Shown: one piece after another, positions 27,581 to 49,613 of the stretch
Position numbering within the stretch: position 1 is the first letter of the stretch
Layout of the letters: each line of letters begins with the position of its first letter
DNA from: Candidatus Desulfacyla euxinica
GTDB lineage: Bacteria; Desulfobacterota; DSM-4660; Desulfatiglandales; Desulfatiglandaceae
Length of the DNA stretch: 61,389 bases
Direction: 5' to 3'
Assembly (NCBI GenBank): GCA_014382715.1
Contig: JACNJD010000124.1
Coordinates: forward strand, 1-61,389
Position numbers and translations under genes: made by a program
The notes under the pieces: model-generated
The model's database searches: none
What the model saw: the letters and a program-made list of their open reading frames with translations, nothing else
Told to the model about the DNA's origin: nothing

Positions 27581-27607
27581 GCAATATCAACAGGTTGCAT
27601 GTCTTTA

Positions 27608-29745: not shown

Positions 29746-29928
29746 GCAAAAAGCTAAACATTGAAATTATTTCAACTCGCATGTCCCCTATTGGACCTGT
29801 GTACATCTCGCCCCAACCCTGCCCAAATGGAAAAGCCTTGATTTCAGCAAAGAAACCATGTACTTTTCCCCAGTCACTGCCTTTAATTTGTAACATCTAT
29901 AAAGAGGGCTACCATGGACTGTAAACCA

Positions 29929-31833: not shown

Positions 31834-32082
31834 ATGAAAGCAATAAGAATTCTGATCACAGGTCTAATTGCTATAAGTTTTGTTGCGGCCCCTGCCTTAG
31901 CTCAAGAAAACAGCACTTCAGACAAGGTCCTGCTATATCTGCCATCGAGTGTTTACAAACAGATACCTATTGAGGAAGCAAAAAGGATGAAAAACTATAG
32001 TTCTGCCGATCAATACCAAATATCAGTTACGCCAGATTATTCATCCAATAACCCCGGCACAGAAAAGCAAGAAAAAGATTAA
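31834..32082 (+). CDS. Small secreted protein
   Basis: AAAGGAGAGG lies upstream. Signal peptide is MKAIRILITGLIAISFVAAPALA-QE. Length is 82 aa. Confidence 0.6.
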   Translation: MKAIRILITGLIAISFVAAPALAQENSTSDKVLLYLPSSVYKQIPIEEAKRMKNYSSADQYQISVTPDYSSNNPGTEKQEKD

Positions 32083-32153
32083 CAGCCCGCAAATTGAACA
32101 TAAGACAGGTTAATGAGAATCACGATACACCCATGATTGTGGAGGATATCAAA

Positions 32154-33341
32154 ATGTCTAGGAAAATGGTCATTAATTCCCTCTTTGCCCTTGCATTAAT
32201 GCTTTTCTTTGTTTGCTCCCATGCAACTGCAGCATCCACCGTGGTTTTCTATACGGAAGCGAGTTGTTCGTCATTGACTCTCGTTTTTGGTGGCGTAACT
32301 CATTCCAGCAAGATAAGGTGTGCTTATGGTGCAGGTTTTAGTGGGGTTGCCGCCGGTACATACAGTTGGAAGGTCACCGGTTGTGGTATGTCCTGGTCAG
32401 GCACAAAAACCGTAAACGGTACATCAAGGTATAATTATGTTCTTTGTCCTCCCTCTGGAGGGAGCTGTTGCTCTACGGGATATGGCACAGGGGGTACATT
32501 CCTATGTTCCCAGTGCAGCAGCGCTACGACCACCACAACCACCGCTGCCACAACTACCACAACAACCACTGCCGCTACCACAACAACCACTTCCGCTACT
32601 ACGACAACCACCATCCCTTCGTCCACTTCGGCATTATTTGTGAGAAACTCATCCGGTACTGAGGTGTTTGGTGTAAGTGCCGCTGGTGCTATCACCACTG
32701 CTTCCAGACTTTTTACCAATGGTGCATCAGCAGTGGGCGCTGCGCCGTTTGTTCTTGGTCAGGATATTGGTAACAGAGGAATTGTCATCACAGACAAAGC
32801 AGCGACAAATCCCAAAAGAATCTATTTCGGATGGAATACCGGAGCCTCTATGGAATATGTGGAAATCTTTGCCCTCCAGGAAGGTGTGGCATACAAAAAC
32901 TTTGTTCTTGCACCGTTTGGCGGCAACGTCGGCATCAACACCAGTAGCCCTGCATATCCTTTACACATTGGAAACAGTGCACATGTCACTACAGGAGGGG
33001 TTTGGACAAACGCATCCAGTGGAGAATACAAAACAGACGTTAAACAGCTTTCAGCAGAGAAGGCCATGGATGCTTTAACACAGCTCAAACCGGTTGAGTT
33101 TGCCTATAAAGCTGATTCGCAGGAAAAACATGTAGGATTCATTGCGGAAGACGCCCCTGACATCGTGGCAACAAAGGACAGGAAGGGTATGAGTCCTATG
33201 GACGTTGTTGCTGTCCTGACCAAGGTTGTGCAGGAACAACAAAAATTCATCCGAGAACAGAAAGAAATCGTACAGAAACAACATAAAACCATAAGCGAGT
33301 TGTCAGAGAGAGTAGCAGAACTAAAAAATAAATTAAAGTAA
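32154..33341 (+). CDS. Secreted protein A: Cys-rich head, Thr/Ala tract, fibre stalk, C-terminal S74-type intramolecular chaperone domain
   Basis: GGAGGA is 7 nt upstream of ATG 32154. Signal peptide ends ..CSHATAAS. The Thr tract lies at 32523..32613. The C-terminus reads SSGEYKTDVKQL..LKPVEFAYK..HVGFIAEDAPDIV..MDVVAVLTKVVQEQQ, as in tail-fibre/endosialidase chaperone domains. Confidence 0.8.
   Translation: MSRKMVINSLFALALMLFFVCSHATAASTVVFYTEASCSSLTLVFGGVTHSSKIRCAYGAGFSGVAAGTYSWKVTGCGMSWSGTKTVNGTSRYNYVLCPPSGGSCCSTGYGTGGTFLCSQCSSATTTTTTAATTTTTTTAATTTTTSATTTTTIPSSTSALFVRNSSGTEVFGVSAAGAITTASRLFTNGASAVGAAPFVLGQDIGNRGIVITDKAATNPKRIYFGWNTGASMEYVEIFALQEGVAYKNFVLAPFGGNVGINTSSPAYPLHIGNSAHVTTGGVWTNASSGEYKTDVKQLSAEKAMDALTQLKPVEFAYKADSQEKHVGFIAEDAPDIVATKDRKGMSPMDVVAVLTKVVQEQQKFIREQKEIVQKQHKTISELSERVAELKNKLK
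32590..33229 (+). repeat. Long direct repeat, copy A (partner at 48838..49477, offset 16248)
   Basis: 32739..33193 looks 100 percent identical to 48987..49441 (455 bp). There is one mismatch at 33194. The 150 bp before the block are about 88 percent identical by eye. Confidence 0.85.
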
Positions 33342-33834
33342 AAACAAGAAAACTGGAGTCAAATTATCAATTCGTAATTATGTTTTTCTATACACTTATA
33401 GCTCTTCGCAGGCAACTTGATACTTAAGATTACCCTTATGATATGATGTTTTATTCATAAAACTCAATAGAGATCAAATAGCATCACCAGCTATGCCCGT
33501 AGGTTTATATTACTCCGAGCTTGCCTCATTAGTCGCCATCAATGCACCTATAACAGTATTTTGAGATAAATAGGGGGTTTGCGCTCTATTTATAACCCTT
33601 TGAAATTGTAAGTGATTCCGGGAAGGTCCGAACAATTTCACCTTACTTTGTCCTTTAGGTTTTTAATCTTGAAGAGAGTCATATTGATGCAAAGCGTGTT
33701 ATTGTTGGTTATAATGTGATTTGTATGGCTTGACTGGCAAATGGTACAGTGCAAATGCCTCTAAATAAATGGTATTTGCAACCTCTCATTACATGTGATA
33801 GTGATTTTCCCGTCTCTCATTGGTTCCTCCTGAT

Positions 33835-33852
33835 GCCCCTTTTGGGGCTTTT
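33835..33852 (+). terminator. Short GC hairpin plus T-run
   Basis: GCCCC-TTTT-GGGGC followed by TTTT. The stem is weak (5 bp). Confidence 0.3.
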
Positions 33853-33974
33853 CCGGAAGTGGAATCTAATCTATTTCTCGTCGGCACGGTAGAACCTCGT
33901 AGGGTCGCAGGGACATAGTCCGTGGTTTAATAAGGGCAATTATATTGAGAAATCTGCTGGTAAGATCTGCGAAC

Positions 33975-34949
33975 ATGGAGACAACGAATTATGAACGTCG
34001 CGACATTGTCCGTCGCTCAGCTGTTATTGTTCTGCACTATGGGAATCCTGAAATTACAAGCAGATGTATTTCTTCTATTCGTGCCTCTGACTTAGTACCA
34101 GATATCATATTGGTAGACAATGATCCCATTCATCGATATCTCCGACCAAGTGAGTTAGGCCTAACCTACCTGCCACAAGAAGTAAATTTGGGATTTGCTG
34201 GCGGGGTCAATCTCGGTATACGAAAAGCTATCAAATTGGGGAAGGAGATGGTCCTTCTACTCAATAACGATGTGGAAGTCGCCCCAAAAACAGTTATACG
34301 CCTTTTGGTGACATCCTATCTCCTTTCTTGCCTTGTCGGCGGAATAGAATTGGCGCTGGATAAGAATGGCGGGCACATGTCCAAAGTGATTTTCGCCGGT
34401 GGAGACTTGGTTTGGAAGGAGCTACCAGTTCGCCTAAGGCTCAGCCCAACATCCCATAAACAACCTTATTCTACAGGTTTTGTTCGTGGATCCTGCATGG
34501 CTTTGTCTTTAAAGATAGTTCAATCCATCGGTCTTATGGATGTCGGATTTTTTGCTTATGGAGAAGACGTCGATTATTGTATCAGAGCGTCCCAGGCAGG
34601 ATGGCCGCTAATGATTGACCCGCGGGCACAGCTTTGGCACAGGGGCTCGGCCAGTTGTGATGTCCGCAGAAGAAATTATTTAATGGCCCGAAACGGAGTG
34701 CGTTTGTTGCGGAGGTACACAATGGGGAAGATGTATATGCGCGGAATGATTTTAGGGTCCCTGGCTGCCTTATCCAGTGTTTTCAGGAAGGAAAGACAGG
34801 GAAAATTCAAGGGATTTATTGAAGGATTATTGTACAATCCAGGATACTATCTTCTGGGGCCTCAGAATTCCTTTCACGCTCCCAAGCCTGCCATAATATC
34901 GCCCCGGGGTCAACATGGCCCAACAGTCAATCGGAAAATCCATAGTTGA
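33975..34949 (+). CDS. GT2 glycosyltransferase (rhamnosyltransferase-like)
   Basis: Contains VIVLHYGNPEIT..ILVDND..GFAGGVNLGI..LLLNNDVEV. ATG 33975 is preferred over TTG 33945. Confidence 0.75.
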   Translation: METTNYERRDIVRRSAVIVLHYGNPEITSRCISSIRASDLVPDIILVDNDPIHRYLRPSELGLTYLPQEVNLGFAGGVNLGIRKAIKLGKEMVLLLNNDVEVAPKTVIRLLVTSYLLSCLVGGIELALDKNGGHMSKVIFAGGDLVWKELPVRLRLSPTSHKQPYSTGFVRGSCMALSLKIVQSIGLMDVGFFAYGEDVDYCIRASQAGWPLMIDPRAQLWHRGSASCDVRRRNYLMARNGVRLLRRYTMGKMYMRGMILGSLAALSSVFRKERQGKFKGFIEGLLYNPGYYLLGPQNSFHAPKPAIISPRGQHGPTVNRKIHS

Positions 34950-35930
34950 CCCCTTCCCGAAACGACCTACAGAAGGGATAAAATTTGGATTCGGGCTAAA
35001 TTCAAATAACCATCCGTCTTGCAGCTGAGTTGGTATTTCCAGCATAAAAGGGGAAGTAAAGACGGACTCGTGAAGGTTTTCACCCTTCGTATTTATGGGG
35101 GCCTTACGATGACCCATCAACTTTTTGCCCCTAAATTTCAAACCCTTAATGTATTTTTCTAAGAATATCCTGTGGGATATTTTGAAAATTGACCTTTTAT
35201 CTTTTTCATTTACTTTGTCACACTGGTTGTAGTGATGAGTTGCCTTAGCGTTTGGTTCCATGAAAAGAGTATAGCCTGCCTTTTTCAGACGCATAAAAAG
35301 ATCAGTGTCTTCAAAATAGAGAAAAAAGCGGGGATCAAAAAGCCCTTGGGCCATTAAGATAGACTCCCTTTTTAGGAGGACCACACTACCTGAAAGGTTT
35401 CTCATTTTTACAGGTCTGTCAGAGCACCAAAATTTTATGGAATAGTCCCTCCAAATAACACTAAAAAGCCTATTGATTATTGACTGAGGGCCAAATTTGC
35501 CCAAAATGGATTCAAAAAGAAATAATGCGGGAGGATAGGACGGCGGCAAAAGGTATGAGAGCCCGTCATCCCAAAAAACCCTTGGAGCAACGGCCCCCAC
35601 ATTTTCTCGAGCAGACAACAGCTTTTGTAAGCATACCAAACAACCTGATAATAATTTGGCATCTGGATTTATGAGAAGGATGAATTCGCCTGAAAACTGT
35701 TCAAAGGCTTGATTGCAGGCACGCCCAAAGCCGATATTTTGGGCATTCACTCTCAAAGTGACGACCGGAGGAAGACCCAATCGCAATTTTTGTACTTCCT
35801 CCTCATCCTCGCTGTTGTCTATTACAATTACATGAACAGGACCTATTGATGACGAGTTGAGGACTGATTGAGCTGCCTGCAGCGTTAGGCCTGCACTCTT
35901 GTAATTGATTATGATAGCAAGTGTTTCCAA
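34827..35930 (-). CDS. GT2 glycosyltransferase
   Basis: Contains AIIINYKSAGLT..VIVIDNSEDEE..GFGRACN..LLINPDAKL. Confidence 0.75.
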   Translation of the reverse strand: METLAIIINYKSAGLTLQAAQSVLNSSSIGPVHVIVIDNSEDEEEVQKLRLGLPPVVTLRVNAQNIGFGRACNQAFEQFSGEFILLINPDAKLLSGCLVCLQKLLSARENVGAVAPRVFWDDGLSYLLPPSYPPALFLFESILGKFGPQSIINRLFSVIWRDYSIKFWCSDRPVKMRNLSGSVVLLKRESILMAQGLFDPRFFLYFEDTDLFMRLKKAGYTLFMEPNAKATHHYNQCDKVNEKDKRSIFKISHRIFLEKYIKGLKFRGKKLMGHRKAPINTKGENLHESVFTSPFMLEIPTQLQDGWLFEFSPNPNFIPSVGRFGKGSTMDFPIDCWAMLTPGRYYGRLGSVKGILRPQKIVSWIVQ

Positions 35931-36056
35931 GGATAGTGTTTTCTCTGTAGCGGAAAAGCCTTCCTAAAAAGCGGTCAGTCATGTTAGTGCAAAAACCAAT
36001 TACAAAATTCATCCAGCAAATGTAACCGGTTTTAAAAGTAGTCAATGGGAAAACCA

Positions 36057-36728
36057 CTATTTCCACCATCCAACCCTTTTGGTTAGATTGCTAAATTGGA
36101 CCACATCACTATCAAGGCTCTCTGCAATATAGGTCATAGTACCATCAAAATCCTCCAGCATGTTATTATACATAATGCTAACGACATTAGAGTTTTTCCC
36201 CCTACTGTTAGCCCACAACGTGGTATAATGCTCCCAATATTCTTGGGGTTTCATGTCTACCTCATGGAAAAAACGATTTTCGCCTGCAAATTTTACATTC
36301 CCTGTTAAGGTCCTCACATTTGTGGCCGGCTTGTTGAGCTTCTTTATTCTCCGCTCAACCTCCTGGAAAAAATGAACTGCGGCAGGAAATTTTGTGTTCC
36401 TTGCCAAGTTCCTTACGTTTGTCATCAGCTTTTTATATTTTTCTATTTTCCGCATATCTTTATACCGGGTTTTCAGGAATTCCTCATAACTACCAACGTC
36501 CAAACCAAACCTCTCCTTTAGCACATATATGGACTTAGCTACCTCCTTAAACGCTCTCCATATATGAATATACACAACATTTGGATCACATGTTATTTGA
36601 GGGAGCCCATGATTTCCGTATATTTTTAGATAATCCGGATCATTCAGGAAATTCGTACTTATTAGCGCTGTTATATAGTGGGTTCCTGATCTTGGATGGC
36701 CTATACACACTATGTTTTTGTATTTCAT
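36057..36728 (-). CDS. Sulfotransferase-like protein with an internal ~30-aa tandem duplication
   Basis: CIGHPRSGTHYI resembles the PAPS 5'-phosphosulfate-binding loop. Residues 96-125 and 126-157 are repeats (..TNVRNLARNTKFPAAVHFFQEVE / ..TNVRTLTGNVKFAGENRFFHEVD). Confidence 0.45.
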   Translation of the reverse strand: MKYKNIVCIGHPRSGTHYITALISTNFLNDPDYLKIYGNHGLPQITCDPNVVYIHIWRAFKEVAKSIYVLKERFGLDVGSYEEFLKTRYKDMRKIEKYKKLMTNVRNLARNTKFPAAVHFFQEVERRIKKLNKPATNVRTLTGNVKFAGENRFFHEVDMKPQEYWEHYTTLWANSRGKNSNVVSIMYNNMLEDFDGTMTYIAESLDSDVVQFSNLTKRVGWWK

Positions 36729-36801
36729 GGTAGGATCTCTCTGTTAACTTTCCAGGATGTAAAGTCGCGATTAAGTAATGAATAGCTCAACTAACGAAAG
36801 C

Positions 36802-38346
36802 TTAACACAATAGTCCCTTAGCTATTTTGAAAAGTAGTTTTCTAAGAATCAGTCTAAATCGTCCCACCGGGCCGGAATGGGCTAATCGGTTTCGGATTTC
36901 ATTTTCGTATTTATGAACTACTCTCCAACGGGCATTGAGGTCATGATCAGACCCAAAAGGGGTTTGAGTCAGGGTGCTATAACCATGTTTTCTGTATATG
37001 GCGGTCCATGCCTTTACCGGAATGAAACCGTAATTCGCCAAAGCAAGACGTAACCATAGATCCCAATCTTCGAACATCTCAAGGTTCTCATCAAAACCGC
37101 CAACGGCTTCAAGGGCCTCCCTTCGGATAAGAACGCTGTGGATAGGTAAAAAATTTTCTTTTAGGAGATGTGATAGATCCATCGGGTGCAAAGAAATAAA
37201 ATTCTGCAGTCCATTTTCGTTTTCTTCAATTACCCCGCTGTAGGCAATGCTGCACCATGGATTTCTGGATAAAGCCAACAAAAGCGTTTCTATATGGTGG
37301 CGGGTGTAAAGGTCATCATCATCAAGAAAGGCAACCATTGATCCTTGGGATTGTTTCCATCCAAGGTTAGCAGCGTGGCTGCGGTTTGCCCGATCTTCAG
37401 TTCGTAATATACGTATCGGGATTTCAGAAAATGGAATAGTTGTTTCGGATGTGCCATCATTCACCACTATTATTTCAATACCTCGCCATGTTTGTGCAAG
37501 AACGCTTTCCACTGCTTGCCTTAGGGCCTCAGGGCGATTACGCGTTCGGATCACCACACTGACTTTCTTATCTTGCGCGGGGCTGGAATAGGGTGAAATC
37601 ATCCTTTCATCTTGAAGGATCATCGCGGGTAGACGAGGAACATCGTTGGATGAGAAGAATCGAAAGGCCTCGACTGCAAGGATTTCAGGAGGAAGACTCC
37701 ATGTGCGGAATTTATTTAACCCCAAGAGCATCCCCTTATAATCCCTTTGGGATAGTTGTGACTTATACGCTGATAAGGCTGCAGTTTTTTGTTCAATGAA
37801 ATTCGAGATATCAACAAGAAGGTTGACTTTCGGCAAAGGTAGTATCTCGTAAAAAGCAACCTCAATCTTCCATGAAAGCCACGGGAGAAGGTGAATAAAC
37901 AGGTTCGAAGTAGCCAGATGATCAGGATGATGCTCGTATGGTGAAGGAATAAGACATAGATCAGGACGTATTCTTAGGAGCAGGTGTTGCAGTCGGTCCA
38001 AGAGGCGTTGATTGACCTCAAGGCTACGATCAGGTTCCCCCCAGATCACAACCGACTCCCATGGTACCCCTAAAATTTCCATGGCATTTCTTAATTCTTG
38101 AAGTCGTGTGGTTGCAAGATCTTGCTTTTCTGATGATACATTTGCAAGCCCTGCACCATCTGTAAGTACCAAGACGCATATTTTACTCCCTTCCTTTACA
38201 TATCTGCACAACGCACCTCCACAGGCCAAAGTCTCGTCATCAGGATGAGGAGCAGCTACCAGAATCCGACGGGCAGATACCCAGCCGTCTTTATATGGTA
38301 AACGGTCAATCTCCGGCCATCTGCCGCTTCGACCCATATCTACCAT
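36802..38346 (-). CDS. Fusion of a PIG-L/LmbE-family deacetylase and a GT2 glycosyltransferase
   Basis: The N-terminus has VAAPHPDDETLACGG. The C-terminus has VSVVIRTRNRPEAL..IIVVNDG..FLDDDD. Confidence 0.75.
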   Translation of the reverse strand: MVDMGRSGRWPEIDRLPYKDGWVSARRILVAAPHPDDETLACGGALCRYVKEGSKICVLVLTDGAGLANVSSEKQDLATTRLQELRNAMEILGVPWESVVIWGEPDRSLEVNQRLLDRLQHLLLRIRPDLCLIPSPYEHHPDHLATSNLFIHLLPWLSWKIEVAFYEILPLPKVNLLVDISNFIEQKTAALSAYKSQLSQRDYKGMLLGLNKFRTWSLPPEILAVEAFRFFSSNDVPRLPAMILQDERMISPYSSPAQDKKVSVVIRTRNRPEALRQAVESVLAQTWRGIEIIVVNDGTSETTIPFSEIPIRILRTEDRANRSHAANLGWKQSQGSMVAFLDDDDLYTRHHIETLLLALSRNPWCSIAYSGVIEENENGLQNFISLHPMDLSHLLKENFLPIHSVLIRREALEAVGGFDENLEMFEDWDLWLRLALANYGFIPVKAWTAIYRKHGYSTLTQTPFGSDHDLNARWRVVHKYENEIRNRLAHSGPVGRFRLILRKLLFKIAKGLLC

Positions 38347-39380
38347 TGGTCAACGTCCCCCATACTGAAATACCACTTGCTATTTGTCATTAAATGGGTG
38401 AAGTCCTCTCCCTTCATATTGCAAGCCCGAGTCGCCCACAGGATCGGTTCATTCACAACCCTGAACCCAAGTGTGAAAAGGTTTCCAAGAGTGGGATCTT
38501 CCAAAAGGCGTATCTTTATGAAATGGGTTCCGGGTTTGTACGCCCGGGTTAGAATTTTTCTAAGCACTGCAACCAGGATCGGTCGGGTTAGTTCTGCTCG
38601 AACAGCGAGGATATCTTTGATGGCAATAATCCGGTCCTGCTGATCCCACACTACAAAACCTAAAATTTTTTCTGGTGATCGGATTCCCCACACATGATAT
38701 GAACAATCCCCATATCGGTACTGAAGGTATGTCGCATCGCGCTGGTAGACTGCGTTCTCTTGCCTGAGGGAGCAGGCCGCCCATATATTATCCAGGTCCC
38801 TTTTGTCTGGGGGTTGTGTTTCGACAGTCAAACCTTGATAATTCCCGTTATAAAGACCCCACCAGGCAGACCAGAAAATCCGTTGTAAAACAATGGGTAT
38901 CTTGGGTAATGAACGCCATACAAGGACATGTCGCATCTTCTGGATCTGACCGCCTGCAAAACGCGCATGTAAGCGCATACTGAGCCTATTTCCGAATCCA
39001 ATGCATATGGAGGCTCCTTGCAATTTCATTTGCTTGAAAAGTTGGTCCCACATACGAGCGTAAATCCGGCCAGCCACTGCTGTATACTGAAGTTCTGAAG
39101 CTATCAAGAGATCGCCAGGGCAGGCAGCGACTATTGTTCCGGCCGGTGTTGAAAGATGCCAGAAAACCGCCCCAAAGTGGCCAACAAGCCGGTTTTCACG
39201 CCACGCGACAACCCCAACCGGAGCATTGACCCGTAAAGAGAGTGGCTGTTTCAAATGTTTTGTTAGCCACCTGGTCCCTACTCCTCTACCAAATCCATTT
39301 TCAAGAAAGGCCCGAATCTTGTTAATATGTTGTTTTGAGACAGGAGATATCTCAATTTCCTTAGATTTCATTTCGATCAT
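38340..39380 (-). CDS. Double-GNAT-like acyltransferase (paralogue of 56606..57697)
   Basis: ATG 39380 (MIEMKSKE) is preferred. The 452-aa track ORF would run through the upstream GT4 gene. The architecture matches the 363-aa GNAT-like protein at 56606. Confidence 0.55.
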   Translation of the reverse strand: MIEMKSKEIEISPVSKQHINKIRAFLENGFGRGVGTRWLTKHLKQPLSLRVNAPVGVVAWRENRLVGHFGAVFWHLSTPAGTIVAACPGDLLIASELQYTAVAGRIYARMWDQLFKQMKLQGASICIGFGNRLSMRLHARFAGGQIQKMRHVLVWRSLPKIPIVLQRIFWSAWWGLYNGNYQGLTVETQPPDKRDLDNIWAACSLRQENAVYQRDATYLQYRYGDCSYHVWGIRSPEKILGFVVWDQQDRIIAIKDILAVRAELTRPILVAVLRKILTRAYKPGTHFIKIRLLEDPTLGNLFTLGFRVVNEPILWATRACNMKGEDFTHLMTNSKWYFSMGDVDQW

Positions 39381-41481: not shown

Positions 41482-41861
41482 AAAGCTAACGATGCTTTTA
41501 AATGTAACTGCTTGGAAGTCCTAAAATAAGTAACCAAACAAAGGCTTTCTGGTTTTAGATGTATCTGAATAATTGAGAACTGAAAGAGTAATGAATCATA
41601 CCAATAGTTTTGTTTCAATTCAGTTTCAATCCATAATTTACGGAATTGAAGATCTCCATATGAACTTCAAATATCTAAATATATTTGAGCGGAAATTATA
41701 ATTATGAACGCTTTTTAAAAGGGATAATAAGAGAAACACAACTGTATGTCAATTATAGATCATAGCCATCAGAAAAAAGGCCGCATCCCTACCTTAGCTA
41801 AGCTTCGGATCCTGTTAGATTTGGTTAGAAGTTACATAACACTATGAAGCAGACTGTTTTC

Positions 41862-43616
41862 TCATTTCTTACTCAACTTCAATAGGGTCTTGTATTCTTC
41901 CGCAGCCTTATCCTTCATTTTCATTTTGCGATAAAGCATCTCTAAAATCATGTGTGAATCTATACAGTCAGGATTAATCTTTACAACTTCCTTGTAAAGC
42001 GTTAGCGCTTTATTTATCTGTCCCTTCTGTAAATATATGCTGCCTAAATTCTTAAGTGAATAAATGAACTTAGGATTTATTCTCAAAGTCTTTTCATATT
42101 CACTTTCAGCCTTTTCAATTAAGCCTTCCCGCTGGTAAATGCATCCTAAATTAAAATGTGCTAATTCGTAATTTGGGTGTTCCCTAAAACACTTCTCGAA
42201 CTCCTGCTCCACCTTTTTCGACCAGCCATCTTTTAAATAATAGCAGAATGCTATATTATGTTGAGCAAGATAATAATTGGGGGATATTTCCAGTGCCCTT
42301 TTGAATTCGCCTAATGCTTCATTTATGCGCCCTTTTTCTTGTAGACAACCTCCGAAATTATTGTGTGCACGAGCGCAGTTCGGTTGAGTTTTTGCTGTCT
42401 TTTCCCACAATGTAAACTGATCTTTCCAATCTTTATTACGCACTATAGTTCTGACAGACAATAAAATAAGGAAAATTAAAATTATCGGGTATGCGAGACT
42501 TCTAAGTCTTGGCGAACTTACGAGCTGTTCGAACAACCACGCAATCAATATGCAAAATCCAGCAGATGGCAAGTATAGATAATGCTCAGTTACCATTTCG
42601 TGATGCGGAATAACGCCAGATACTGGAAGGATGGTGATAAAAAACCAGAGCGCAGAGAATGCAACAATCTTTTTGTGACGAAATCTAAAGATAAGATAAC
42701 CCACCCCAGATAAAAAAATTAAACAAAATAAAGTTTGTATTTCAAAAACCGACGTTGATCTGGGAAACGCATTAAAAGAGTAATCAGCATTTAAAGTCAT
42801 TGGGAAAAATAGCAGTTTTATGTAAAAACACCAAATTCTTAGAACGGTTAATAAATTCAGGCATACATTTTCCAAGAAATAGCCTAAAATATCTGCTTTC
42901 ATTGCTTTTATGATCGCTGGGGAATAAACGACTATTGAGTAATAAGCAAACATCCCAACAATGACGAAGAATATTAGGTGCTGGTATTTATATTTTTTTA
43001 GCACCTTGATTCCTTTATCTATATCAAAGCAAAAATCATAGGCCAGGAATATCAAAGGCAAGGTTACTGCCATTTCCTTTGTAAATGCGCCAAGAACATA
43101 GGCCACACAAGCAAACGCCATATATCTCTTATAGTTGGTATTTCTGTAACGCAAAAAAAGCCAAAAACCCATCAGATAAAATAGGCTCGATAAAACATCT
43201 CTTCTGCCGGAGATGTAGGTTACTGCATCGGTGTGGATAGGGTGGATTGCAAACAAAATACCAGCAAATATTGCCATTCTATGATTTTTTGCGATTTGGA
43301 CCACAATTAAATATAAAAATATGGTTCCCAAAATATGATAAGCTACATTTGAAATGTGGTAAGATATTGGATTTAAACCAGAAATAAAATAGTCGATGAA
43401 ATAGGATAAGGTCCTAATTGGGCGGTAGTTTGGCCAGCCATCATCAAACCCTAGGATGGCGGGTATATTTTTCAAACTTCGGATCTCATAATTCTCAACC
43501 ACCAGTTGAATATCGTCAAATACGAAATCGTTCTTGAGGCAGTTGAAATAAACAACCCATGAAACACCGCTGATTAAAAGAACCGCGATTAGATGTTTTT
43601 TAATCTTTTGTTTCAT
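41862..43616 (-). CDS. Polytopic GT-C-like membrane protein with C-terminal TPR repeats (TMTC/PMT-like)
   Basis: The first loop reads FDDIQLVVENYEIRSLKNIPAILG..YRPIRTLSY. About 10 TM segments follow, then 4-5 TPR units (..ALGEFKRALEISPNYYLAQHNIAFCY..). Confidence 0.6.
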   Translation of the reverse strand: MKQKIKKHLIAVLLISGVSWVVYFNCLKNDFVFDDIQLVVENYEIRSLKNIPAILGFDDGWPNYRPIRTLSYFIDYFISGLNPISYHISNVAYHILGTIFLYLIVVQIAKNHRMAIFAGILFAIHPIHTDAVTYISGRRDVLSSLFYLMGFWLFLRYRNTNYKRYMAFACVAYVLGAFTKEMAVTLPLIFLAYDFCFDIDKGIKVLKKYKYQHLIFFVIVGMFAYYSIVVYSPAIIKAMKADILGYFLENVCLNLLTVLRIWCFYIKLLFFPMTLNADYSFNAFPRSTSVFEIQTLFCLIFLSGVGYLIFRFRHKKIVAFSALWFFITILPVSGVIPHHEMVTEHYLYLPSAGFCILIAWLFEQLVSSPRLRSLAYPIILIFLILLSVRTIVRNKDWKDQFTLWEKTAKTQPNCARAHNNFGGCLQEKGRINEALGEFKRALEISPNYYLAQHNIAFCYYLKDGWSKKVEQEFEKCFREHPNYELAHFNLGCIYQREGLIEKAESEYEKTLRINPKFIYSLKNLGSIYLQKGQINKALTLYKEVVKINPDCIDSHMILEMLYRKMKMKDKAAEEYKTLLKLSKK

Positions 43617-44076
43617 TAAATTTTCTCACACCGCTGTAAAATCGATCTCCGATCGATCTGTACGAATTCGTGGCACATAATAGGAGGGGCATGGAAATTA
43701 CATTCTTTTTGTTATTGGGATATTGGCATTCTGGTCATAGTTTCGTATTTCATGCTTTGGATTTTGTATTTCTTGATCGAAAGGCAGGATTTCTGGTCAG
43801 GCTATAATTATTTACACCAATAGTGTGATCTATGTGCGCTCATTCCATAATACAATATACACATGATATTATTAAACTTGATTAAACTTGATATCAAATT
43901 CAATATTTTTTATATTCATTTCCAACAAAATGTTTTTTCCTTGTGCAGGCTCCCCAATAACACTACTGATCAGAAAAAATTTCATGCTGAATCAGTAGAA
44001 AATAGTTTTTTGATATTATTGTGAAAAACACCCATTCGTCTATTTTTTAAGTCTTTCTGAAGTTCGGATCATACTG

Positions 44077-45450
44077 ATGACAACTTCTCTTAGTATTCTT
44101 TGGCCAAAAAGTACAGCCCCAGATATTGAAGAGGTAACATTTTCTTATGATTTCTGTAGACGAGTCAGTCAGGAGTTATGCCAAAACATAGCTCAGAAAT
44201 ATTCATGGATAGACTATCCCGCTGACTGGAACCTTGCCCATGCCCTTTCGGAGGCCCAAAGTGAAATGCTTTTTGTGGTCAATAAACCCGAACTTGTGCT
44301 ATCTTCAATAGTCTTAAATCGTCTGACAAAGGGGCTTGAAAGTGGCTGTATAGCATGCGGTCCGGTTTACAATGAGACTTCGTTTTCCAGTCAGAAAGCC
44401 AAGCTACCTTTTCCATATGTCAATATCCCAACTTTTTTGGAGGCTTCTCAGGCTTTAGAGAGCAAAAAAAGGCGTGTTATTACCGTCCACGCCCTGGATC
44501 CAGCGTGTATATTATATCAGAGAGATTTTTTAAAGCGTGTTGACGCAAAACACCTTCTTACAGAGGCTTACAAGTCCATTCCTGGAACCATTAAGAAGAG
44601 CGTGGCAGTTGATTCAGGCGCCCTGGTTCATATATTCAGAAACTACTATGAAGACGAACCAGATGATCGGGTTGGTTTTGTTCCTCAAATGGTAAGATGT
44701 GCTATTGATATGGGATGGCATTTTTTACAGAAACTTGGCGCAAAACACCTTTTGTCAGAAAGCTACGTATCCAACTTTGAAAGAGCATTAAGAAAAAAAA
44801 CGTTAGCGGTACTTCACTTTTTAGGGAGTCAGAATAACTGGCAAAGAGATTGCATGATTCACCTTATTCCTGAAACAGTAAAGAACGTCTTAGATATTGG
44901 ATGCGCCAGTGGAGGATATGGGAAGAGGCTAAAACAAATTCGCCCGGAGATTTTTCTGAAGGGCATTGAGAGAAACCTGATAATGGCGGAATATGCCCGA
45001 AATTACTACGATGATGTCGTCGTCTCTTCAGTGGAATCTGCTAATCTTCCGGCCGGATTTGATCTTGTGAATTGTGGAGATGTTCTGGAACATCTCCACA
45101 ATCCCTGGGAAATGCTAAAACGCGTTCACCGCCTGCTCAGACAGGGAGGACATCTTGTGATTAGCATTCCTAATGTGGGACATTGGTCCATAGCCAGAGA
45201 TCTCCTTGATGGCAGATACCAATATGTTCCTATAGGATTGTTATGCGTATCACATATACGGTGGTTCACTGAATCTTCCATCCGACAAGCCCTGATGGAC
45301 GCTGATTTTGAAATCGAAATCTTATATAGGCAAAAAATTCCTCCCAGCCCTCAAGGCAAAGTATTCATTCATCATATGTGTGAAAAAGGCTATGGTGACA
45401 AGGAATCATTATTGACGAACGAATTTATTATTAGAGCCATCAAGCAATGA
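44077..45450 (+). CDS. Class I SAM-dependent methyltransferase with a ~250-aa N-terminal domain of unknown function
   Basis: VLDIGCASGGYG (motif I) and DLVNCGDVLEHL are in the C-terminal half. Confidence 0.65.
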   Translation: MTTSLSILWPKSTAPDIEEVTFSYDFCRRVSQELCQNIAQKYSWIDYPADWNLAHALSEAQSEMLFVVNKPELVLSSIVLNRLTKGLESGCIACGPVYNETSFSSQKAKLPFPYVNIPTFLEASQALESKKRRVITVHALDPACILYQRDFLKRVDAKHLLTEAYKSIPGTIKKSVAVDSGALVHIFRNYYEDEPDDRVGFVPQMVRCAIDMGWHFLQKLGAKHLLSESYVSNFERALRKKTLAVLHFLGSQNNWQRDCMIHLIPETVKNVLDIGCASGGYGKRLKQIRPEIFLKGIERNLIMAEYARNYYDDVVVSSVESANLPAGFDLVNCGDVLEHLHNPWEMLKRVHRLLRQGGHLVISIPNVGHWSIARDLLDGRYQYVPIGLLCVSHIRWFTESSIRQALMDADFEIEILYRQKIPPSPQGKVFIHHMCEKGYGDKESLLTNEFIIRAIKQ

Positions 45451-45546
45451 GTATGATCGGAGGAGGAGCCAAGCCATACAATCCTTATTTCCGATAAGGA
45501 ACATACGAGGCACAAACGAGATGAGTTACTTCAACTCACCAATAAA

Positions 45547-46638
45547 ATGAAAATTGCATATGTATTAGAATCCAGTGCGCTTTTTGGTGGCGTAAAAGTT
45601 GTTTTGCGCCAGGCAGAGGCTCTGCTTAAAAGAGGCCACCATTCTGTCGTAATTTCCCTTGAAAAATATCCGTCCTGGTTCGATGGCCATATCTTATTTA
45701 AAGAAGAAGATCCCTTATATCGAAAGGTGGTGAAGAAGCTTGATCAGACGATTGGAACTTTTCCAAGACTGACTCTGCCGTTGTATCTTAAATTGCTGAA
45801 GTCATTTGAACAGATTTTCGTAACCTCCCCAAGATTGCTCCTGATCCTGTATGATTGCCCTGATGTTCGCAATAAATTGTGGCACCTTACCCAAGGTTAT
45901 GAAGGCGATTGCCTGGAAGCTATTCCTCATATGCTTTTGCTTGAGAAGGCCTATTCCTTACCGGTACCTAAAATTACAATTTCAGAAAATTTGGCAGATC
46001 GATTGACCCTGATGTTTCCCGGGAATTATTTTTTTTCGGTGGGTCAGGGTTTAGAACATGACTACTTTTTTCCAAGAGGAACGAATTCTGATGAGAATTT
46101 CCAGAAAGTTGATCGAGTTTTCCTTGTGGGCCCTCTGAACACCTCCATCAAACAGATCCGTAAAGGCCTTCATGCATTTGACCTAGCCAGAAAACAGAAT
46201 CCAGCATTGAAACTTGTGAGAATATCAACCGTCGATACACAGTATGAAGAGGAAGCATTGATTGGCCCTATAAAAGAATACCATGTACACATAAGCCCGG
46301 CAAAAGTCGGTGAAGTGTTAAGATCCGGAAATGGGATACTTATCTCTCCTTCAGGCCCTGGTGAAGGATTCGGGTTATCTGCACTTGAAGCAATGGCATG
46401 CGGCGTCCCGACGGTACTTACAGATATTCCTAGTTACAAGTCATTTTCCGAGCCATGTGATTACGCGAAGTTTGTACCTGATGATGTCAATTTCTTGGCG
46501 ACAGCCCTTCGCTGCTTAATGGAAGATAGCCATGAGCGGCAGCGTTTGATAGTGAGAGGGCTTGAAGTCGCGGGTGAATTTTCTTATGACAGCGTGGCAA
46601 GGAACGTAGAAAAAATTCTTTTTAACAGTATGGAATGA
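45547..46638 (+). CDS. GT4 glycosyltransferase
   Basis: Contains PSGPGEGFGLSALEAMACGVPTVLTDIPSY. Confidence 0.7.
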   Translation: MKIAYVLESSALFGGVKVVLRQAEALLKRGHHSVVISLEKYPSWFDGHILFKEEDPLYRKVVKKLDQTIGTFPRLTLPLYLKLLKSFEQIFVTSPRLLLILYDCPDVRNKLWHLTQGYEGDCLEAIPHMLLLEKAYSLPVPKITISENLADRLTLMFPGNYFFSVGQGLEHDYFFPRGTNSDENFQKVDRVFLVGPLNTSIKQIRKGLHAFDLARKQNPALKLVRISTVDTQYEEEALIGPIKEYHVHISPAKVGEVLRSGNGILISPSGPGEGFGLSALEAMACGVPTVLTDIPSYKSFSEPCDYAKFVPDDVNFLATALRCLMEDSHERQRLIVRGLEVAGEFSYDSVARNVEKILFNSME

Positions 46639-46674
46639 CCAGTATATCGTGATTGGATTTTCTTCGAAATCATA

Positions 46675-47577
46675 ATGAAAACTTTGGATGTCAGCCTCAT
46701 TATACCCGTTCATTCAGGAATCAGCCGGTTGAATCGGCTTTTTTCTTCCCTGGATAGATTAGAAGTTAAAGATAAACGGGCTGAATGCATTTTGGTCGCG
46801 GATCGTTGTGATGAGGACATAGTTCGAAGGCTTGAATCCTGGTGCAGGTCAAAAACGTGCCGTCGCTGGGTGAGATGCATTGTCCTCCCCGTTGATTTTG
46901 GAAACCCAGACAAAGCTAGAAATTTAGGGCAAAAAAGGTCTGCTGGCAAGGTCCTTGCTTTTATGGATGATGACTGCCGACCCTCGCGTCAATGGTTGCT
47001 GTCGGGGTTGCGCCATATCAGAACCTGGAATGCTGTAACAGGTCCTGTATTGCATCCAAATACATGGCTTGGCATACTTGTGGCCGTCATGGACTTTGGG
47101 GAATTTCAAGCAACGGTTTCATCTGCTATCAAGAATGCGCCTGGATGCAATTTCTTTGTACGTTTTGAAGCAATTTCCGAGTACCCAATTCTTCCCGAAT
47201 ATGACTATGGTGGGGACCGCCTGCTTGCGGCCTCTTTGGCCCAAGTGGGCCCCATCTGGTATCACCCGGATGTGTCTGTTTTTCACGACCTCGCATTGGA
47301 TTGGAAGGCCATTTGGCCCAGAGAAATTCGTTACGGGGCGGTCGCCTGGGCTGCACGACGTAAAAACCCTTCCCTGCCTTGGAGTTCTCTCCTTAATTTT
47401 GGCCCTATAGCGCCCTTTATTGTTGTTTCTGGCCGCTTAATTATGGATCTTAAAAGACTTTGGTTTGGCAGATGGCCTTTGCCTTTGCTGCACAAGCTGT
47501 TCGTTACATTTAGTCTTTTTCCCGCCCGACTTGGCTACTTAATCGGTCTGATGCTCGCAAAGCATCGCAAGCTTTAG
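46675..47577 (+). CDS. GT2 glycosyltransferase
   Basis: Contains VSLIIPVHSG and FMDDDCRP (DxD). The C-terminus is hydrophobic. Confidence 0.65.
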   Translation: MKTLDVSLIIPVHSGISRLNRLFSSLDRLEVKDKRAECILVADRCDEDIVRRLESWCRSKTCRRWVRCIVLPVDFGNPDKARNLGQKRSAGKVLAFMDDDCRPSRQWLLSGLRHIRTWNAVTGPVLHPNTWLGILVAVMDFGEFQATVSSAIKNAPGCNFFVRFEAISEYPILPEYDYGGDRLLAASLAQVGPIWYHPDVSVFHDLALDWKAIWPREIRYGAVAWAARRKNPSLPWSSLLNFGPIAPFIVVSGRLIMDLKRLWFGRWPLPLLHKLFVTFSLFPARLGYLIGLMLAKHRKL

Positions 47578-47649
47578 CATCAATTTCCACATGCAGAACG
47601 TCTTGAGAATTTGGAGAGAACACGCCTATTCTTAAAAGGCTTGACTTGT

Positions 47650-47965
47650 TTAATAGAAATTACCGGTGAAATTTTTCCTGCGACCAAGATATGTCCTCGC
47701 AATGTGCATTGTACTTTTACCTGTGATATGTCCAACCACATTGGAAACTTCATATTTGGGGAATAGCAATCAACATATGGCTGTAATCCAAGTGGAGATG
47801 ACGTTCCAGAATCTCACAATCTGTCCTGCGGGCTATTTTCCGGAAAACTGCACTCAAATGAGTATTTACATCACCATAAATCTCTTTTTTCTGATATTTT
47901 GGTGCCCAAGTGAGATAATGCTTGCATTCTAATTTTGCATGGTTTAAACTCTTTATATCATTCAT
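47650..47965 (-). pseudogene. tnpA: IS200/IS605-family tnpA (Y1 transposase) relic, frameshifted and C-terminally truncated
   Basis: Reads ..KHYLTWAPKYQKKEIYGDV..CEILERHLHLDYSHMLIAIPQI and then a stop. The -1 frame continues PKYEVSNVVGHITGKSTMHIARTYLGRRKNFTGNFY and then a stop, so the ..FWARGY.. end is missing. Confidence 0.75.
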
Positions 47966-48164
47966 GTTACGTCTTTTCTTTTGTGACTTTTGAGCGGTTC
48001 ACATTAGGAGAGGTTGTCATAGACTCACGGAAATGTTAAAATCTAATAGTCAAGCAGCATAGCCGGGGGTTTACCATTTATTTAATCAATATAGACTCCG
48101 TCACGTGTGACTGGTTGATTTTTCGTTGAGCTGAAAAACCTAATGTGGAGGAGAAGAACACAGC

Positions 48165-49613
48165 ATGTTTAAGGTTATAAATAAAAAAGCGGGAGTCGCT
48201 GACATTGTGGCGGGGATATCGGTCACCATACTATGTATCCTCTTCCTTACCTGCTTCCCGGCTTTTGCAGAAACCCCACAAGGCGTTATATTGGAAATGG
48301 ATGCCTTTTTGGGGTCCCCTGTCCCTAACATTGAGGCGCTCCCAGATGAGATTGAGTTCGCAATTTACGACTCTGAGACAGCCACCACCGCCATTGCTAA
48401 ACAAATTTTCCCAAAAGGCAAATATACGACTGAGTTGAAGATCAGTAAATCCGGTAGGCCCACCCCGAGCCCCTTGGTCAGTTTCAGAGTAAACTTCTCT
48501 AATAAATTGACCTTTAATGACAAATCAAATGCCTCAGATCAAGTCAAAGGACTATGGCTCGATATTACCCTTGATGGAATCCAAGCGGGAACTAGAAAAC
48601 AAATATCAAACTCCACCTTAATTCGACTTCTCCTGGCAAGTAAGGTGCCTGTCTCAATTTATCGTAACTTTGCGTTCGGGGAAGATGAAAACCCAACTGC
48701 ATTTTCTTCCATTACTCCTACGAAACCACAAGACCGGAACATTGACGGAAACCATACCTATTATGCGTACTTTTCAGGAATGGCAGGTACTGGAGGCACT
48801 GGAACCACAACTTCCACCTCCACAACAACCACCACCACTTCCGCTACTACGACAACCACTATTCCTTCGTCCACTTCGGCATTATTTGTGAGAAACGCAT
48901 CCGGTACAGAGGTGTTTTCTGTAAGCCCTGGTGGTGCCATCACAACTGCTTCCAGACTTTTTACCAATGGTGCATCGGCAGTCGGTGCTGCGCCGTTTGT
49001 TCTTGGTCAGGATATTGGTAACAGAGGAATTGTCATCACAGACAAAGCAGCGACAAATCCCAAAAGAATCTATTTCGGATGGAATACCGGAGCCTCTATG
49101 GAATATGTGGAAATCTTTGCCCTCCAGGAAGGTGTGGCATACAAAAACTTTGTTCTTGCACCGTTTGGCGGCAACGTCGGCATCAACACCAGTAGCCCTG
49201 CATATCCTTTACACATTGGAAACAGTGCACATGTCACTACAGGAGGGGTTTGGACAAACGCATCCAGTGGAGAATACAAAACAGACGTTAAACAGCTTTC
49301 AGCAGAGAAGGCCATGGATGCTTTAACACAGCTCAAACCGGTTGAGTTTGCCTATAAAGCTGATTCGCAGGAAAAACATGTAGGATTCATTGCGGAAGAC
49401 GCCCCTGACATCGTGGCAACAAAGGACAGGAAGGGTATGAGCCCTATGGACGTTGTTGCTGTCCTGACCAAGGTTGTTCAAGAGCAGCAAGAGCTCCTCC
49501 GGGAGCAGCGTAAAATTGCACAGGAACAGGAGAAAACCATAGGCCACTTGTCTGAGAAAGTGGCGAAACTCGAAAGAAGGTTGAAGTCCAAAGAAAACTC
49601 TTTGTCTGAGTAA
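48165..49613 (+). CDS. Secreted protein B: different head, Thr/Ser tract, the same fibre stalk and S74-type chaperone domain as protein A
   Basis: GGAGGAG lies upstream. Signal peptide ends ..FPAFA-ET. The Thr tract lies at 48786..48861. About 215 aa at the C-terminus are near-identical to 32154..33341. Confidence 0.8.
   Translation: MFKVINKKAGVADIVAGISVTILCILFLTCFPAFAETPQGVILEMDAFLGSPVPNIEALPDEIEFAIYDSETATTAIAKQIFPKGKYTTELKISKSGRPTPSPLVSFRVNFSNKLTFNDKSNASDQVKGLWLDITLDGIQAGTRKQISNSTLIRLLLASKVPVSIYRNFAFGEDENPTAFSSITPTKPQDRNIDGNHTYYAYFSGMAGTGGTGTTTSTSTTTTTTSATTTTTIPSSTSALFVRNASGTEVFSVSPGGAITTASRLFTNGASAVGAAPFVLGQDIGNRGIVITDKAATNPKRIYFGWNTGASMEYVEIFALQEGVAYKNFVLAPFGGNVGINTSSPAYPLHIGNSAHVTTGGVWTNASSGEYKTDVKQLSAEKAMDALTQLKPVEFAYKADSQEKHVGFIAEDAPDIVATKDRKGMSPMDVVAVLTKVVQEQQELLREQRKIAQEQEKTIGHLSEKVAKLERRLKSKENSLSE
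48838..49477 (+). repeat. Long direct repeat, copy B
   Basis: See 32590..33229. Confidence 0.85.

Follow-up and report, generated by a model that had tools for sequence, protein, structure and literature searches.

The locus and its boundaries

The window analyzed here, a stretch of 61,389 nucleotides (nt) from Candidatus Desulfacyla euxinica (contig JACNJD010000124.1, positions 1 to 61,389), contains two genes for secreted proteins with a Peptidase_S74 chaperone domain (S74 #1 and S74 #2), which bracket a block of glycan-modification genes that includes a GtrB-like polyprenyl-phosphate sugar synthase and a TMTC-like glycosyltransferase of the GT-C type (the GT-C, below). A preliminary description, made from the sequence alone, had taken the whole for a self-contained system in which the block glycosylates the threonine (Thr) tracts of the two S74 proteins. 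The analysis reported here leads us to favor a different reading, which we consider probable as a whole: two separate modules, a mobile cassette of S74 mini-fiber and hydrolase genes and an unrelated GtrB/TMTC-like glycan block, have been combined side by side on a ~22-kb island associated with a tRNA-Thr gene in a Desulfobacterales-type chromosome.

The boundaries of the island and the features on which its interpretation hinges are listed below, the genes of the glycan block being given in a later section. Loci fetched for comparison are designated by L-numbers; the 115 fetched loci, all scanned with hidden Markov models (HMMs), include 23 foreign S74 loci, 85 foreign TMTC-like GT-C loci and loci of the window's own population.

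27505-27580: tRNA-Thr, first copy, identical to the second
29670-29745, plus strand: tRNA-Thr(CGT), second copy, proposed left boundary of the island (ARAGORN)
31834-32082, plus strand: small82, small secreted protein of 82 amino acids (aa), upstream partner of S74 genes of the long form with a Cys-rich head (tblastn)
32154-33341, plus strand: S74 #1, with signal peptide, 8-Cys beta-sandwich domain, poly-Thr linker, short stalk, and Peptidase_S74 chaperone with C-terminal helix (Pfam, homologues, AlphaFold2 [AF2] model, PDB profile)
32807-33118 and 49055-49366, plus strand: tract of the predicted tip and cleavage site, in concerted evolution (comparison with sister strain L031)
47750-48000 (approximate), minus strand: decayed IS200-type Y1 transposase remnant between the last GT2 gene and S74 #2 (Y1_Tnp called on the same sequence in L030)
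48165-49613, plus strand: S74 #2, with signal peptide, ~170-aa N-terminal domain, poly-Thr linker, and the same stalk and S74 chaperone (Pfam)
50048-50578, plus strand: p176, predicted lipoprotein of the S74 cassette (lipobox-like LAPSC; in L019 a homologue with 87.5% identity follows S74 directly)
50623-51999, plus strand: p458, secreted metalloprotease-like protein with a C-terminal module resembling a beta-helix cap (NCBIfam NF038122, E 1.3e-7, below cutoff)
52067-52107, plus strand: 41-nt direct repeat of the tRNA-Thr 3' end, att-like right boundary (blastn against the window, 40/41 matches)

The two tRNA-Thr copies are united by an exact repeat of 97 bp (27488-27584 and 29653-29749), and the 41-nt repeat of the tRNA end falls 22 kb downstream of tRNA-Thr, in the annotated 5' end of an NAD synthase open reading frame (ORF). 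A tRNA-Thr gene and a repeat of its 3' part are thus found at opposite ends of the region, the arrangement of a tRNA-associated island, and enclose ~22 kb (about 29.7-52.1 kb) with a GC content of 0.36-0.45, as against about 0.48-0.52 outside; the left part of the window is ordinary chromosome. The whole arrangement recurs in independent assemblies of the same population (sister contigs), and misassembly is therefore excluded. The IS200 remnant presents in-frame stops in its minus-strand translation. Outside the population, a related cassette, pairing S74 with a C10 peptidase, is the cargo of a tyrosine integrase/DUF3987 primase element at tRNA-Phe in L010 (1-11387). The corresponding junction is permuted in L011 (1-11320), the integrase there adjoining the S74-C10 cassette, as might be seen if the element were circular or inserted in another way.

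The S74 proteins and their cassette

The reading of the two proteins in the preliminary description as signal-peptide proteins with unrelated heads, Thr tracts, a common stalk and an S74 domain is borne out. Pfam Peptidase_S74 (PF13884) matches S74 #1 (395 aa) and S74 #2 (482 aa) with 40.3 and 39.8 bits, respectively, against a gathering score of 22; hydropathy reveals an N-terminal hydrophobic signal segment on both, long poly-Thr tracts are present in both, and the N-terminal domains (~100 aa with 8 Cys in S74 #1, ~170 aa in S74 #2) are unrelated. Common to the two genes is a module of 787 nt (32556-33342 and 48804-49590) with 92% DNA identity and an essentially identical core protein; its codons 61-211 show zero differences, and its flanks harbor both synonymous and non-synonymous ones. 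The motifs SSGEYK, GFIAEDAPDIV and VVAVLTKVVQEQQ are found in the S74 proteins, and an alignment of 17 family members has S132, S133 and K137 invariant, with Ser and Lys five positions apart and the Asp of the SDxxxK motif replaced by Ser.

More than 2,200 proteins belong to the family that is defined by the stalk plus S74 module, and most of them come from Desulfobacterales and 'Deltaproteobacteria' metagenome-assembled genomes (MAGs). The majority are short forms of about 255 aa, made up of a signal peptide, the stalk and S74; a minority are long forms of about 390-410 aa, in which a Cys-rich domain and a poly-Thr linker stand in front. Compared with PDB sequences, the family profile matches the chaperone of phage T5 pb1 (8hqz, E 2e-5) and, weakly, the MAT fibers of Bdellovibrio (Bd3182 tip, 8ojn, E 6e-4; Bd2133, 8ond, E 0.016), which backs the term 'fiber-like' used in the preliminary description. 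The chain in 8ojn terminates in '...WTVAS', homologous to the '...WTNAS' that precedes the conserved Ser-x4-Lys site here. In the AF2 monomer model of S74 #1 the Cys-rich N-terminal domain is a small beta-sandwich (pLDDT about 90), the Thr tract is disordered and the stalk is of low confidence, as expected for an obligate trimer modeled as a monomer; with this model as query, Foldseek matched the N-terminal domain alone, as a generic beta-sandwich. For the N-terminal domain of S74 #2 there are 47 representative homologues, and nearly all carry it at or near the N-terminus; it follows the signal peptide where one is present, and several copies sit on longer, MAT-like S74 fibers. In one homologue (P0245) this domain is joined by a poly-Thr linker to the hydrolase-associated module described below, so that poly-Thr acts as a general-purpose connector of modules within the family.

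The resemblance to phage proteins brings up the explanation that the island is a prophage or tail remnant, in which the S74 genes would be degraded tail-fiber genes and the glycan block a phage-borne, Gtr-like cassette for serotype conversion. PHROGs tail-fiber families match the stalk and S74 part, the database name of the family is 'tail fiber domain-containing protein', modules of GtrB plus GT-C are classically phage-borne in enterobacteria, and the tRNA repeat is att-like. Against this, a scan of 2.9 million viral contigs yielded no member of the S74 family, PHROGs phage families match nothing in the island besides the S74 genes, and no phage structural gene is called in those S74 neighborhoods that have precomputed Pfam annotation, while the family itself consists of over 2,000 members from Desulfobacterota MAGs, mostly of about 255 aa, and both proteins of the window bear Sec signal peptides. 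With the viral-contig scan empty and PHROGs matching the S74 genes alone, we rejected this explanation as very improbable.

The comparison with the sister strain L031 locates the variation of the island precisely. Over 20.3 kb there are 92 differences, all of them within two parallel tracts of 312 bp, one in each S74 gene; the two copies of the tract are identical within each strain, and 46 sites differ between strains (sisters L030, L031 and L033). No other part of the island is polymorphic, and the tract codes for the residues that lead up to the predicted cleavage site and for the start of the chaperone. Hence, the two S74 copies evolve in concert at what would correspond to the distal tip in MAT and phage fibers. 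By the same analogy, the N-terminal domains are probably the proximal ends of the fibers and the strain-variable tip lies at the C-terminal side, ahead of the cleavage site. The 'exchangeable heads' of the preliminary description were thus probably oriented the wrong way round.

The S74 genes are accompanied by a recurrent set of partners. In L001, L005-L013 and L019 the long-form S74 genes are immediately preceded by homologues of small82 (43-89% identical), and every long-form locus examined presents the 82-aa homologue upstream and a secreted protease downstream (S8, C25-like or C10, with C1 further on). The last ~90 residues of p458 (YVDPAGSCGGNTPCYTTIQTAVNAASTGTTIKI...GGWN...) recur on S8, C25, C10, C1 and M10 peptidases beside S74 genes, and the same module is found there on NHL, PQQ, BNR/sortilin and FGE-type proteins. 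Of the 23 foreign S74 loci, 20 have it beside the S74 gene, and it is absent from all 85 foreign GT-C loci. Its consensus, YV[DE]PxGxCGGNxPCYxxIQxAxxAAxxGxTIKI...GGWN, includes two conserved Cys, and copies occur, among other places, at the following positions.

Window, 51712-51996
L001, 12774-13058
L005, 7556-7840
L010, 4062-4346

The module is internal, rather than C-terminal, in L021, L024 and L028. Weak matches of its profile to pectinesterase and DUF1565-type families (E 0.003-0.05) tentatively suggest a resemblance to the cap and first coils of right-handed beta-helices; a word-indexed search with the 90-aa module returned four short, uninformative matches, and p458 had no match among PDB sequences. 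The consistent partner of the S74 genes is, then, a secreted hydrolase bearing this ~90-aa module.

The glycan block

Between the two S74 genes lies the 14-kb block of low GC content (dipping to 0.36), with three stand-alone GT2 genes, two GT4 genes and a fusion of a PIG-L deacetylase with a GT2 domain, as called by Pfam.

33945-34949, plus strand: GT2 (GT2_a; Pfam)
34827-35930, minus strand: GT2 (GT2_b; Pfam)
36057-36728, minus strand: sulfotransferase-like (Pfam Sulfotransfer_1, 27.2 bits, cutoff 22)
36802-38346, minus strand: PIG-L plus GT2 fusion (Pfam)
38340-39371, minus strand: protein of 343 aa without family match, earlier called 'GNAT-like'
39361-40500, minus strand: GT4 (Pfam)
40501-41481, minus strand: predicted GtrB/ArnC/DPM1-type polyprenyl-phosphate sugar synthase (Pfam GT2, hydropathy, NCBIfam)
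41862-43616, minus strand: TMTC/PMT-like GT-C(A) with C-terminal tetratricopeptide (TPR) domain (Pfam, AF2, Foldseek)
44077-45450, plus strand: S-adenosylmethionine (SAM) methyltransferase, 457 aa (Pfam)
45547-46638, plus strand: GT4 (Pfam)
46675-47577, plus strand: GT2 (GT2_c; Pfam)

The preliminary description had counted 11 carbohydrate-modification genes here. All are supported by Pfam or NCBIfam except its 'GNAT-like' gene, for which no Pfam, NCBIfam or PDB match was found. Its statement that no wzx, wzy or wza is present is confirmed for genes and gaps alike: none of Wzx, Wzy, Wza, GtrA-type or ArnE/F-type proteins was detected in the block or its gaps, nor any export/chain-length protein, polymerase or initiating phosphoglycosyltransferase, and the block does not have the composition of a Wzx/Wzy locus. 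Two details of its genes may be recorded. The 3' ends of the convergent genes GT2_a (plus) and GT2_b (minus) overlap by 123 nt (34827-34949), with the same calls in the sister contigs, and the N-terminal, non-methyltransferase half of the methyltransferase gene contains a direct repeat of 40 nt, 78% identical (44525-44564 and 44720-44759), encoding the repeated peptide '...AKHLL[TS]E[AS]Y...'.

The GtrB-like protein matches Pfam GT2 with 105 bits over residues 9-170, presents two hydrophobic segments (235-261 and 264-297) and aligns at full length with the NCBIfam models of ArnC, PgfS and AglJ, all below their cutoffs. In 16 of the 85 foreign loci, representing about ten distinct contexts, the GT-C gene has a GtrB-like gene no more than 400 bp away, and the two look like a real functional pair. 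The GT-C itself matches TMTC_DUF1736 (PF08409) marginally (27.3 bits, cutoff 27) and multiple TPR families; its transmembrane (TM) domain has more than 1,600 homologues, many with precomputed PMT, PMT_2 or DUF1736 matches. The calls of a GtrB-like and a TMTC-like GT-C/TPR protein in the preliminary description are therefore upheld by the two TM segments, DUF1736, the TPRs and the recurrent pairing. Among 20 homologues the residues DD, YRP, RRD, KE, DYS, HH and EH are invariant, and they were compared with the TMTC motifs M1-M7 as defined in PMC7801869.

M1, DD: D34-D35 (F33-D34-D35), invariant in 20 homologues, predicted first extracytoplasmic loop
M2, SHKSYRP: Y64-R65-P66 alone kept
M3, RxD: present, R138-R139-D140
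M4, KE(T/Q)xxT: present, K180-E181...T185
M5, DW: D278-Y279
M6, PxxP: no match
M7, ERxxY: E344-H345-x-x-Y348

The AF2 model of the GT-C (pLDDT 85.5, pTM 0.89) has STT3/AglB, ArnT, Pmt4 and DPY19 as its nearest structures in Foldseek (E 1e-4 to 1e-2), with neither WaaL nor Wzy among them, and its modeled fold is GT-C(A); judging from the model helices, the conserved motifs and the TPR domain would both face the periplasm. Searched at full length against PDB sequences, the protein was matched in its TPR part alone, and the TM domain was modeled separately. A role in Arn-type modification of lipid A was rejected: no ArnA, B, D, E or F genes are present, the GT-C has TPRs, and the ArnC match of the synthase is far below cutoff. 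The two closest GT-C homologues (68% and 52% identity) lie in modules of the order GT2-GT2-GtrB-GT-C followed by a Wzx-type flippase, which in the locus of the 52% homologue is fused to a sulfotransferase, with a methyltransferase nearby. The presence of Wzx beside these closest homologues points to lipid-linked glycans. The literature searched yielded no study of what bacterial TMTC-like proteins do.

Association of the S74 genes with the glycan block

If the glycan block and the S74 proteins formed one system, they would be expected to travel together, and a survey of genomic neighborhoods had been set beforehand as the test of that idea. By HMM scan, the 85 foreign GT-C loci (362 kb of flank) contained no S74 gene, and the 23 foreign S74 loci (246 kb of flank) no TMTC-like GT-C. 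Across the 115 loci, S74 and TMTC-like GT-C genes occur together solely in the window's own population, and an ORF with a Thr/Ser tract appears in 1 of the 85 foreign GT-C loci. A Pgf-like locus would show the genes for enzyme and substrate linked across genomes, and such linkage was not found. The most direct comparison is provided by L019, a close relative in which small82 (89%), an S74 gene with the Cys-rich head, p176 (87.5%) and p458 (84%) are contiguous and the block is absent; relative to L019, the window has 15.5 kb extra (33323-48803), lying between the two copies of the stalk module.

These observations bear on the self-contained system proposed in the preliminary description, in which the GtrB-like enzyme would load sugar onto a polyprenyl phosphate, the TPR domain of the GT-C would capture the S74 proteins as they are exported, the GT-C would glycosylate their poly-Thr tracts and the other transferases would elaborate the product. 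The proposal is not without appeal: the bracketing is stable across several population samples, both S74 proteins carry long poly-Thr tracts and are predicted to be exported by Sec, TMTC/PMT-type motifs mark the GT-C, whose TPR domain faces the periplasm in the model, a protease gene (p458) is co-encoded, and the streptococcal GtrB/PgtC2 and Pgf systems provide a precedent for Ser/Thr tracts shielded from proteolysis by glycosylation (PMC12041528). However, besides the lack of co-occurrence outside the population, the cassette without the block in L019 and the scarcity of Thr-tract ORFs in GT-C loci elsewhere, long-form S74 genes with Thr tracts are found in L001, L005-9 and L010-13 with no glycosyltransferase within reach. 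Moreover, the Wzx flippases beside the closest GT-C homologues suggest lipid-linked glycans, and the cytoplasmic GT2 and GT4 enzymes could not extend a protein-linked sugar in the periplasm without a flippase, of which the block has none. The claim that the Thr tracts are the acceptors of a self-contained system hence fails the survey, and we regard this explanation as unlikely.

Other results weigh against the favored reading of two unrelated modules on one tRNA-Thr island. No integrase was found among the Pfam-scanned ORFs of 27.6-52.1 kb. The block falls short of a full polysaccharide pathway, since it has neither a flippase nor an initiating transferase. The GT-C loci behind the null counts are often short (23 of them have at least 5 kb of flank), and neighborhood surveys are blind to partners encoded elsewhere in a genome. 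Finally, glycan genes do lie beside other S74 cassettes, in 3 of ~11 independent foreign contexts. In L002 heptose-nucleotide genes adjoin S74. In L019 the S74 cassette is adjoined, in inverted orientation, by a PTPS-related GT-C/TPR gene and a GT2 gene, a pair that is also present in the window.

53212-56507, plus strand: second GT-C-like (PTPS_related) plus TPR protein and a 245-aa GT2, just outside the island (Pfam; synteny with L019)

The third context is an orthologous set (L022, L025, L026 and L027) in which a short-form S74 gene, usually followed by an S8 protease gene (not in L026), lies on the same strand as, and ahead of, epimerase, GT2 and GT4 genes. In L027 (1-17634) the S74 and S8 genes lie inside a glycan operon and share its strand; this operon runs from a YfhO-type GT-C through GT2, LPG_synthase_TM, GFO/hexapeptide transferase, epimerase, DegT and AsnB genes to S74 and S8, and continues with epimerase, two GT2 genes and a GT2-GT4 fusion. 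The first scan of the S74 loci had relied on the TMTC-like HMM alone, and it was redone by functional category after this YfhO-type GT-C came to light. In view of the L027 operon, S74 cassettes and glycosylation may be linked at the level of functional category.

Under such a looser link, a general periplasmic GT-C of the host (TMTC-like or PTPS-related here, YfhO-type in L027) would O-glycosylate the poly-Thr linkers and possibly further regions of the S74 and hydrolase proteins, and cassettes would preferentially be kept near glycan loci because glycosylation keeps co-secreted proteases from attacking the linkers or tethers the proteins to a surface glycan. It draws support from the varied glycan genes that S74 cassettes repeatedly adjoin, from the L027 operon, from the two pairs of GT-C and GT2 genes in the window, and from the documented protection of Ser/Thr tracts by O-glycosylation (PMC12041528). 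On the other hand, 3 of ~11 contexts is, by a rough and uncomputed estimate, not clearly above chance for a 20-kb neighborhood in a genome rich in glycosyltransferases, the glycan-adjacent S74 genes of L022-L027 are short forms without a Thr tract, and variable surface-glycan loci are general insertion hotspots. We keep the looser link as a separate but doubtful alternative.

Proposed model

The reading that we favor, of a mobile S74 cassette and an independent glycan block brought together on the tRNA-Thr island, builds on the domain identities, conserved neighborhoods, missing co-occurrence, island boundaries and concerted evolution observed above. The first module would be a mobile cassette for a small secreted protein, an S74 protein, a lipoprotein and a metalloprotease-like enzyme with the ~90-aa module. 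The S74 proteins would be exported by Sec and trimerize through the C-terminal chaperone, which would then cut itself off at the Ser-x4-Lys site (SSGEYK) and expose a short beta-helical tip that varies between strains, with the poly-Thr tract serving as a flexible linker from the N-terminal domain to the stalk. In the second module, cytoplasmic GT2 and GT4 enzymes, the PIG-L deacetylase, the sulfotransferase and the methyltransferase would build or decorate a glycan, the GtrB-like enzyme would make a polyprenyl-phosphate sugar, and the TMTC/PMT-like GT-C would pass that sugar to an acceptor on the periplasmic face. A cell-envelope glycan, or periplasmic and secreted proteins in general, would be likelier acceptors than the two fibers specifically. 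The bracketing itself probably arose by insertion or recombination in the S74 stalk module, beside the IS200 remnant, rather than by a conserved operon design.

Had the system of the preliminary description been real, it would have been the first Gram-negative O-glycosylation system based on a TMTC-type enzyme with co-encoded substrates, and the comparative evidence argues against it. The results carry other implications. MAT-type self-cleaving fibers, characterized so far in one predatory bacterium, appear to be represented in sulfate-reducer-type bacteria by a large family of much smaller relatives, which rides mobile elements together with secreted proteases and diversifies at its tips. Bacterial TMTC-like GT-C/TPR enzymes, for their part, are abundant and recurrently paired with a GtrB-type synthase, and a tractable member could reveal the role of the ancestors of the animal cadherin O-mannosyltransferases. 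More speculatively, and with little probability in our estimate, the S74 mini-fibers and module-bearing hydrolases might form an undescribed extracellular 'enzyme display' system of Desulfobacterota, mobile and modular, with a self-cleaving trimeric scaffold and its fast-evolving tip, exchangeable proteases and further enzymes docked to the scaffold or co-targeted, and poly-Thr linkers O-glycosylated by a locally recruited GT-C (TMTC-like here, YfhO-like in L027) as protection against the co-secreted proteases.

Other features of the window

The 2 kb between the two tRNA-Thr copies hold a weak DUF6036 nucleotidyltransferase-like ORF and a helix-turn-helix ORF. A short sequence is shared, at ~78% identity, by 43706-43811 (upstream of the GT-C gene), 29528-29583 (just upstream of the second tRNA-Thr) and 13313-13418 of the foreign locus L014, and could be a short dispersed repeat. 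A syntenic relation between the block and L014 by way of NAD synthase was considered and dropped, the regions compared lying on opposite sides of that gene; no inference was drawn from it. Outside the island, the pair of PTPS_related GT-C-like/TPR protein and 245-aa GT2 belongs to a second glycan-type cluster (53212-59915), together with GNAT, radical SAM and YdjC-like deacetylase genes. The window also encodes a HipA-family toxin kinase (13551-14840), an HNH endonuclease (16283-16807) and, on the minus strand, two adjacent large multihaem cytochromes (16968-18749 and 18737-20581).

Comparison with known systems

GtrA/GtrB/GtrC and ArnC/ArnT/ArnEF are three-component systems of periplasmic glycosylation. 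The block of the window is similar to them in having a GtrB/ArnC-like synthase beside a GT-C and in its location on a low-GC island. It differs from them in lacking a GtrA- or ArnE/F-type flippase, in the family of its GT-C, which moreover carries TPRs, and in holding eight further glycan-related genes plus one without a family match.

With the eukaryotic TMTC1-4 proteins, protein O-mannosyltransferases of the GT-C/PMT clan (PMC7801869), the GT-C of the window shares a polytopic GT-C part followed by TPRs, the DUF1736 loop, motifs M1, M3 and M4, the GT-C(A) fold of its model, the Tyr-Arg-Pro of M2 and the Asp of M5. Unlike them, it has no SHK in M2, DY rather than DW in M5, EHxxY rather than ERxxY in M7 and no match to M6, and about 13 helices, counted by eye on the AF2 secondary structure, compared with 11 TMs. 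Its donor would be a bacterial polyprenyl-phosphate sugar, and its two closest homologues lie beside Wzx flippases.

The assertion of the preliminary description that no described bacterial system combines these parts was too strong in view of the streptococcal GtrB/PgtC2 and Pgf systems (PMC12041528) and of the MATs (PMC10769870). The former O-glycosylate Ser/Thr-rich tracts, protecting them from proteolysis, by means of a YfhO-family GT-C, and the pgf cluster of S. mutans encodes its own adhesin substrates, Cnm, CnaB and CbpA (PMC12041528). Both they and the window pair a GT-A polyprenyl-phosphate sugar synthase with a GT-C, PgfS is among the best NCBIfam matches of the GtrB-like protein (below cutoff), and their substrates, disordered Ser/Thr-rich tracts of exported proteins, have a counterpart in the Thr tracts of the exported S74 proteins. 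In contrast, the GT-C here is TMTC-like, the streptococcal hosts are Gram-positive, and enzyme and substrate genes do not stay linked from genome to genome in our case.

Among the S74 proteins of phages (T5 pb1, K1F endoNF), the Pfam S74 domain, the Ser/Lys spacing, the helical C-terminal part and the position directly after a beta-helical tip (a predicted one in the window family) are all features held in common with the window family, which differs in having no phage context, in bearing a Sec signal peptide and in being absent from the viral contigs scanned. The MAT fibers, for their part, are chromosomally encoded, signal-peptide-bearing trimeric beta-helix proteins, 13 of 21 of which have an autoproteolytic S74 domain (PMC10769870). 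The window family is smaller (255-480 aa, well short of the about 1,000 aa of MATs) and has SSxxxK where MATs have SDxxxK; many of its members lack any N-terminal domain, and the short forms leave no room for the conserved, beta-rich MAT domain of ~130 aa that follows the signal peptide. Its genes lie in cassettes with secreted hydrolases that share a module, and the host belongs to a non-predatory Desulfobacterales lineage. Nevertheless, the MATs of Bdellovibrio bacteriovorus (e.g. Bd3182, PMC10769870) are likewise chromosomal, with a signal peptide, a beta-helical stalk (predicted in the window family) with GxVGIGT-type motifs, mosaic exchange of parts and a C-terminal S74 chaperone with a Ser...Lys motif, whose autoproteolysis would, by analogy, extend to the proteins described here. 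Given these resemblances and the profile matches to MATs and to T5 pb1, the S74 proteins of the window are best understood as candidate miniature MAT-like fibers.

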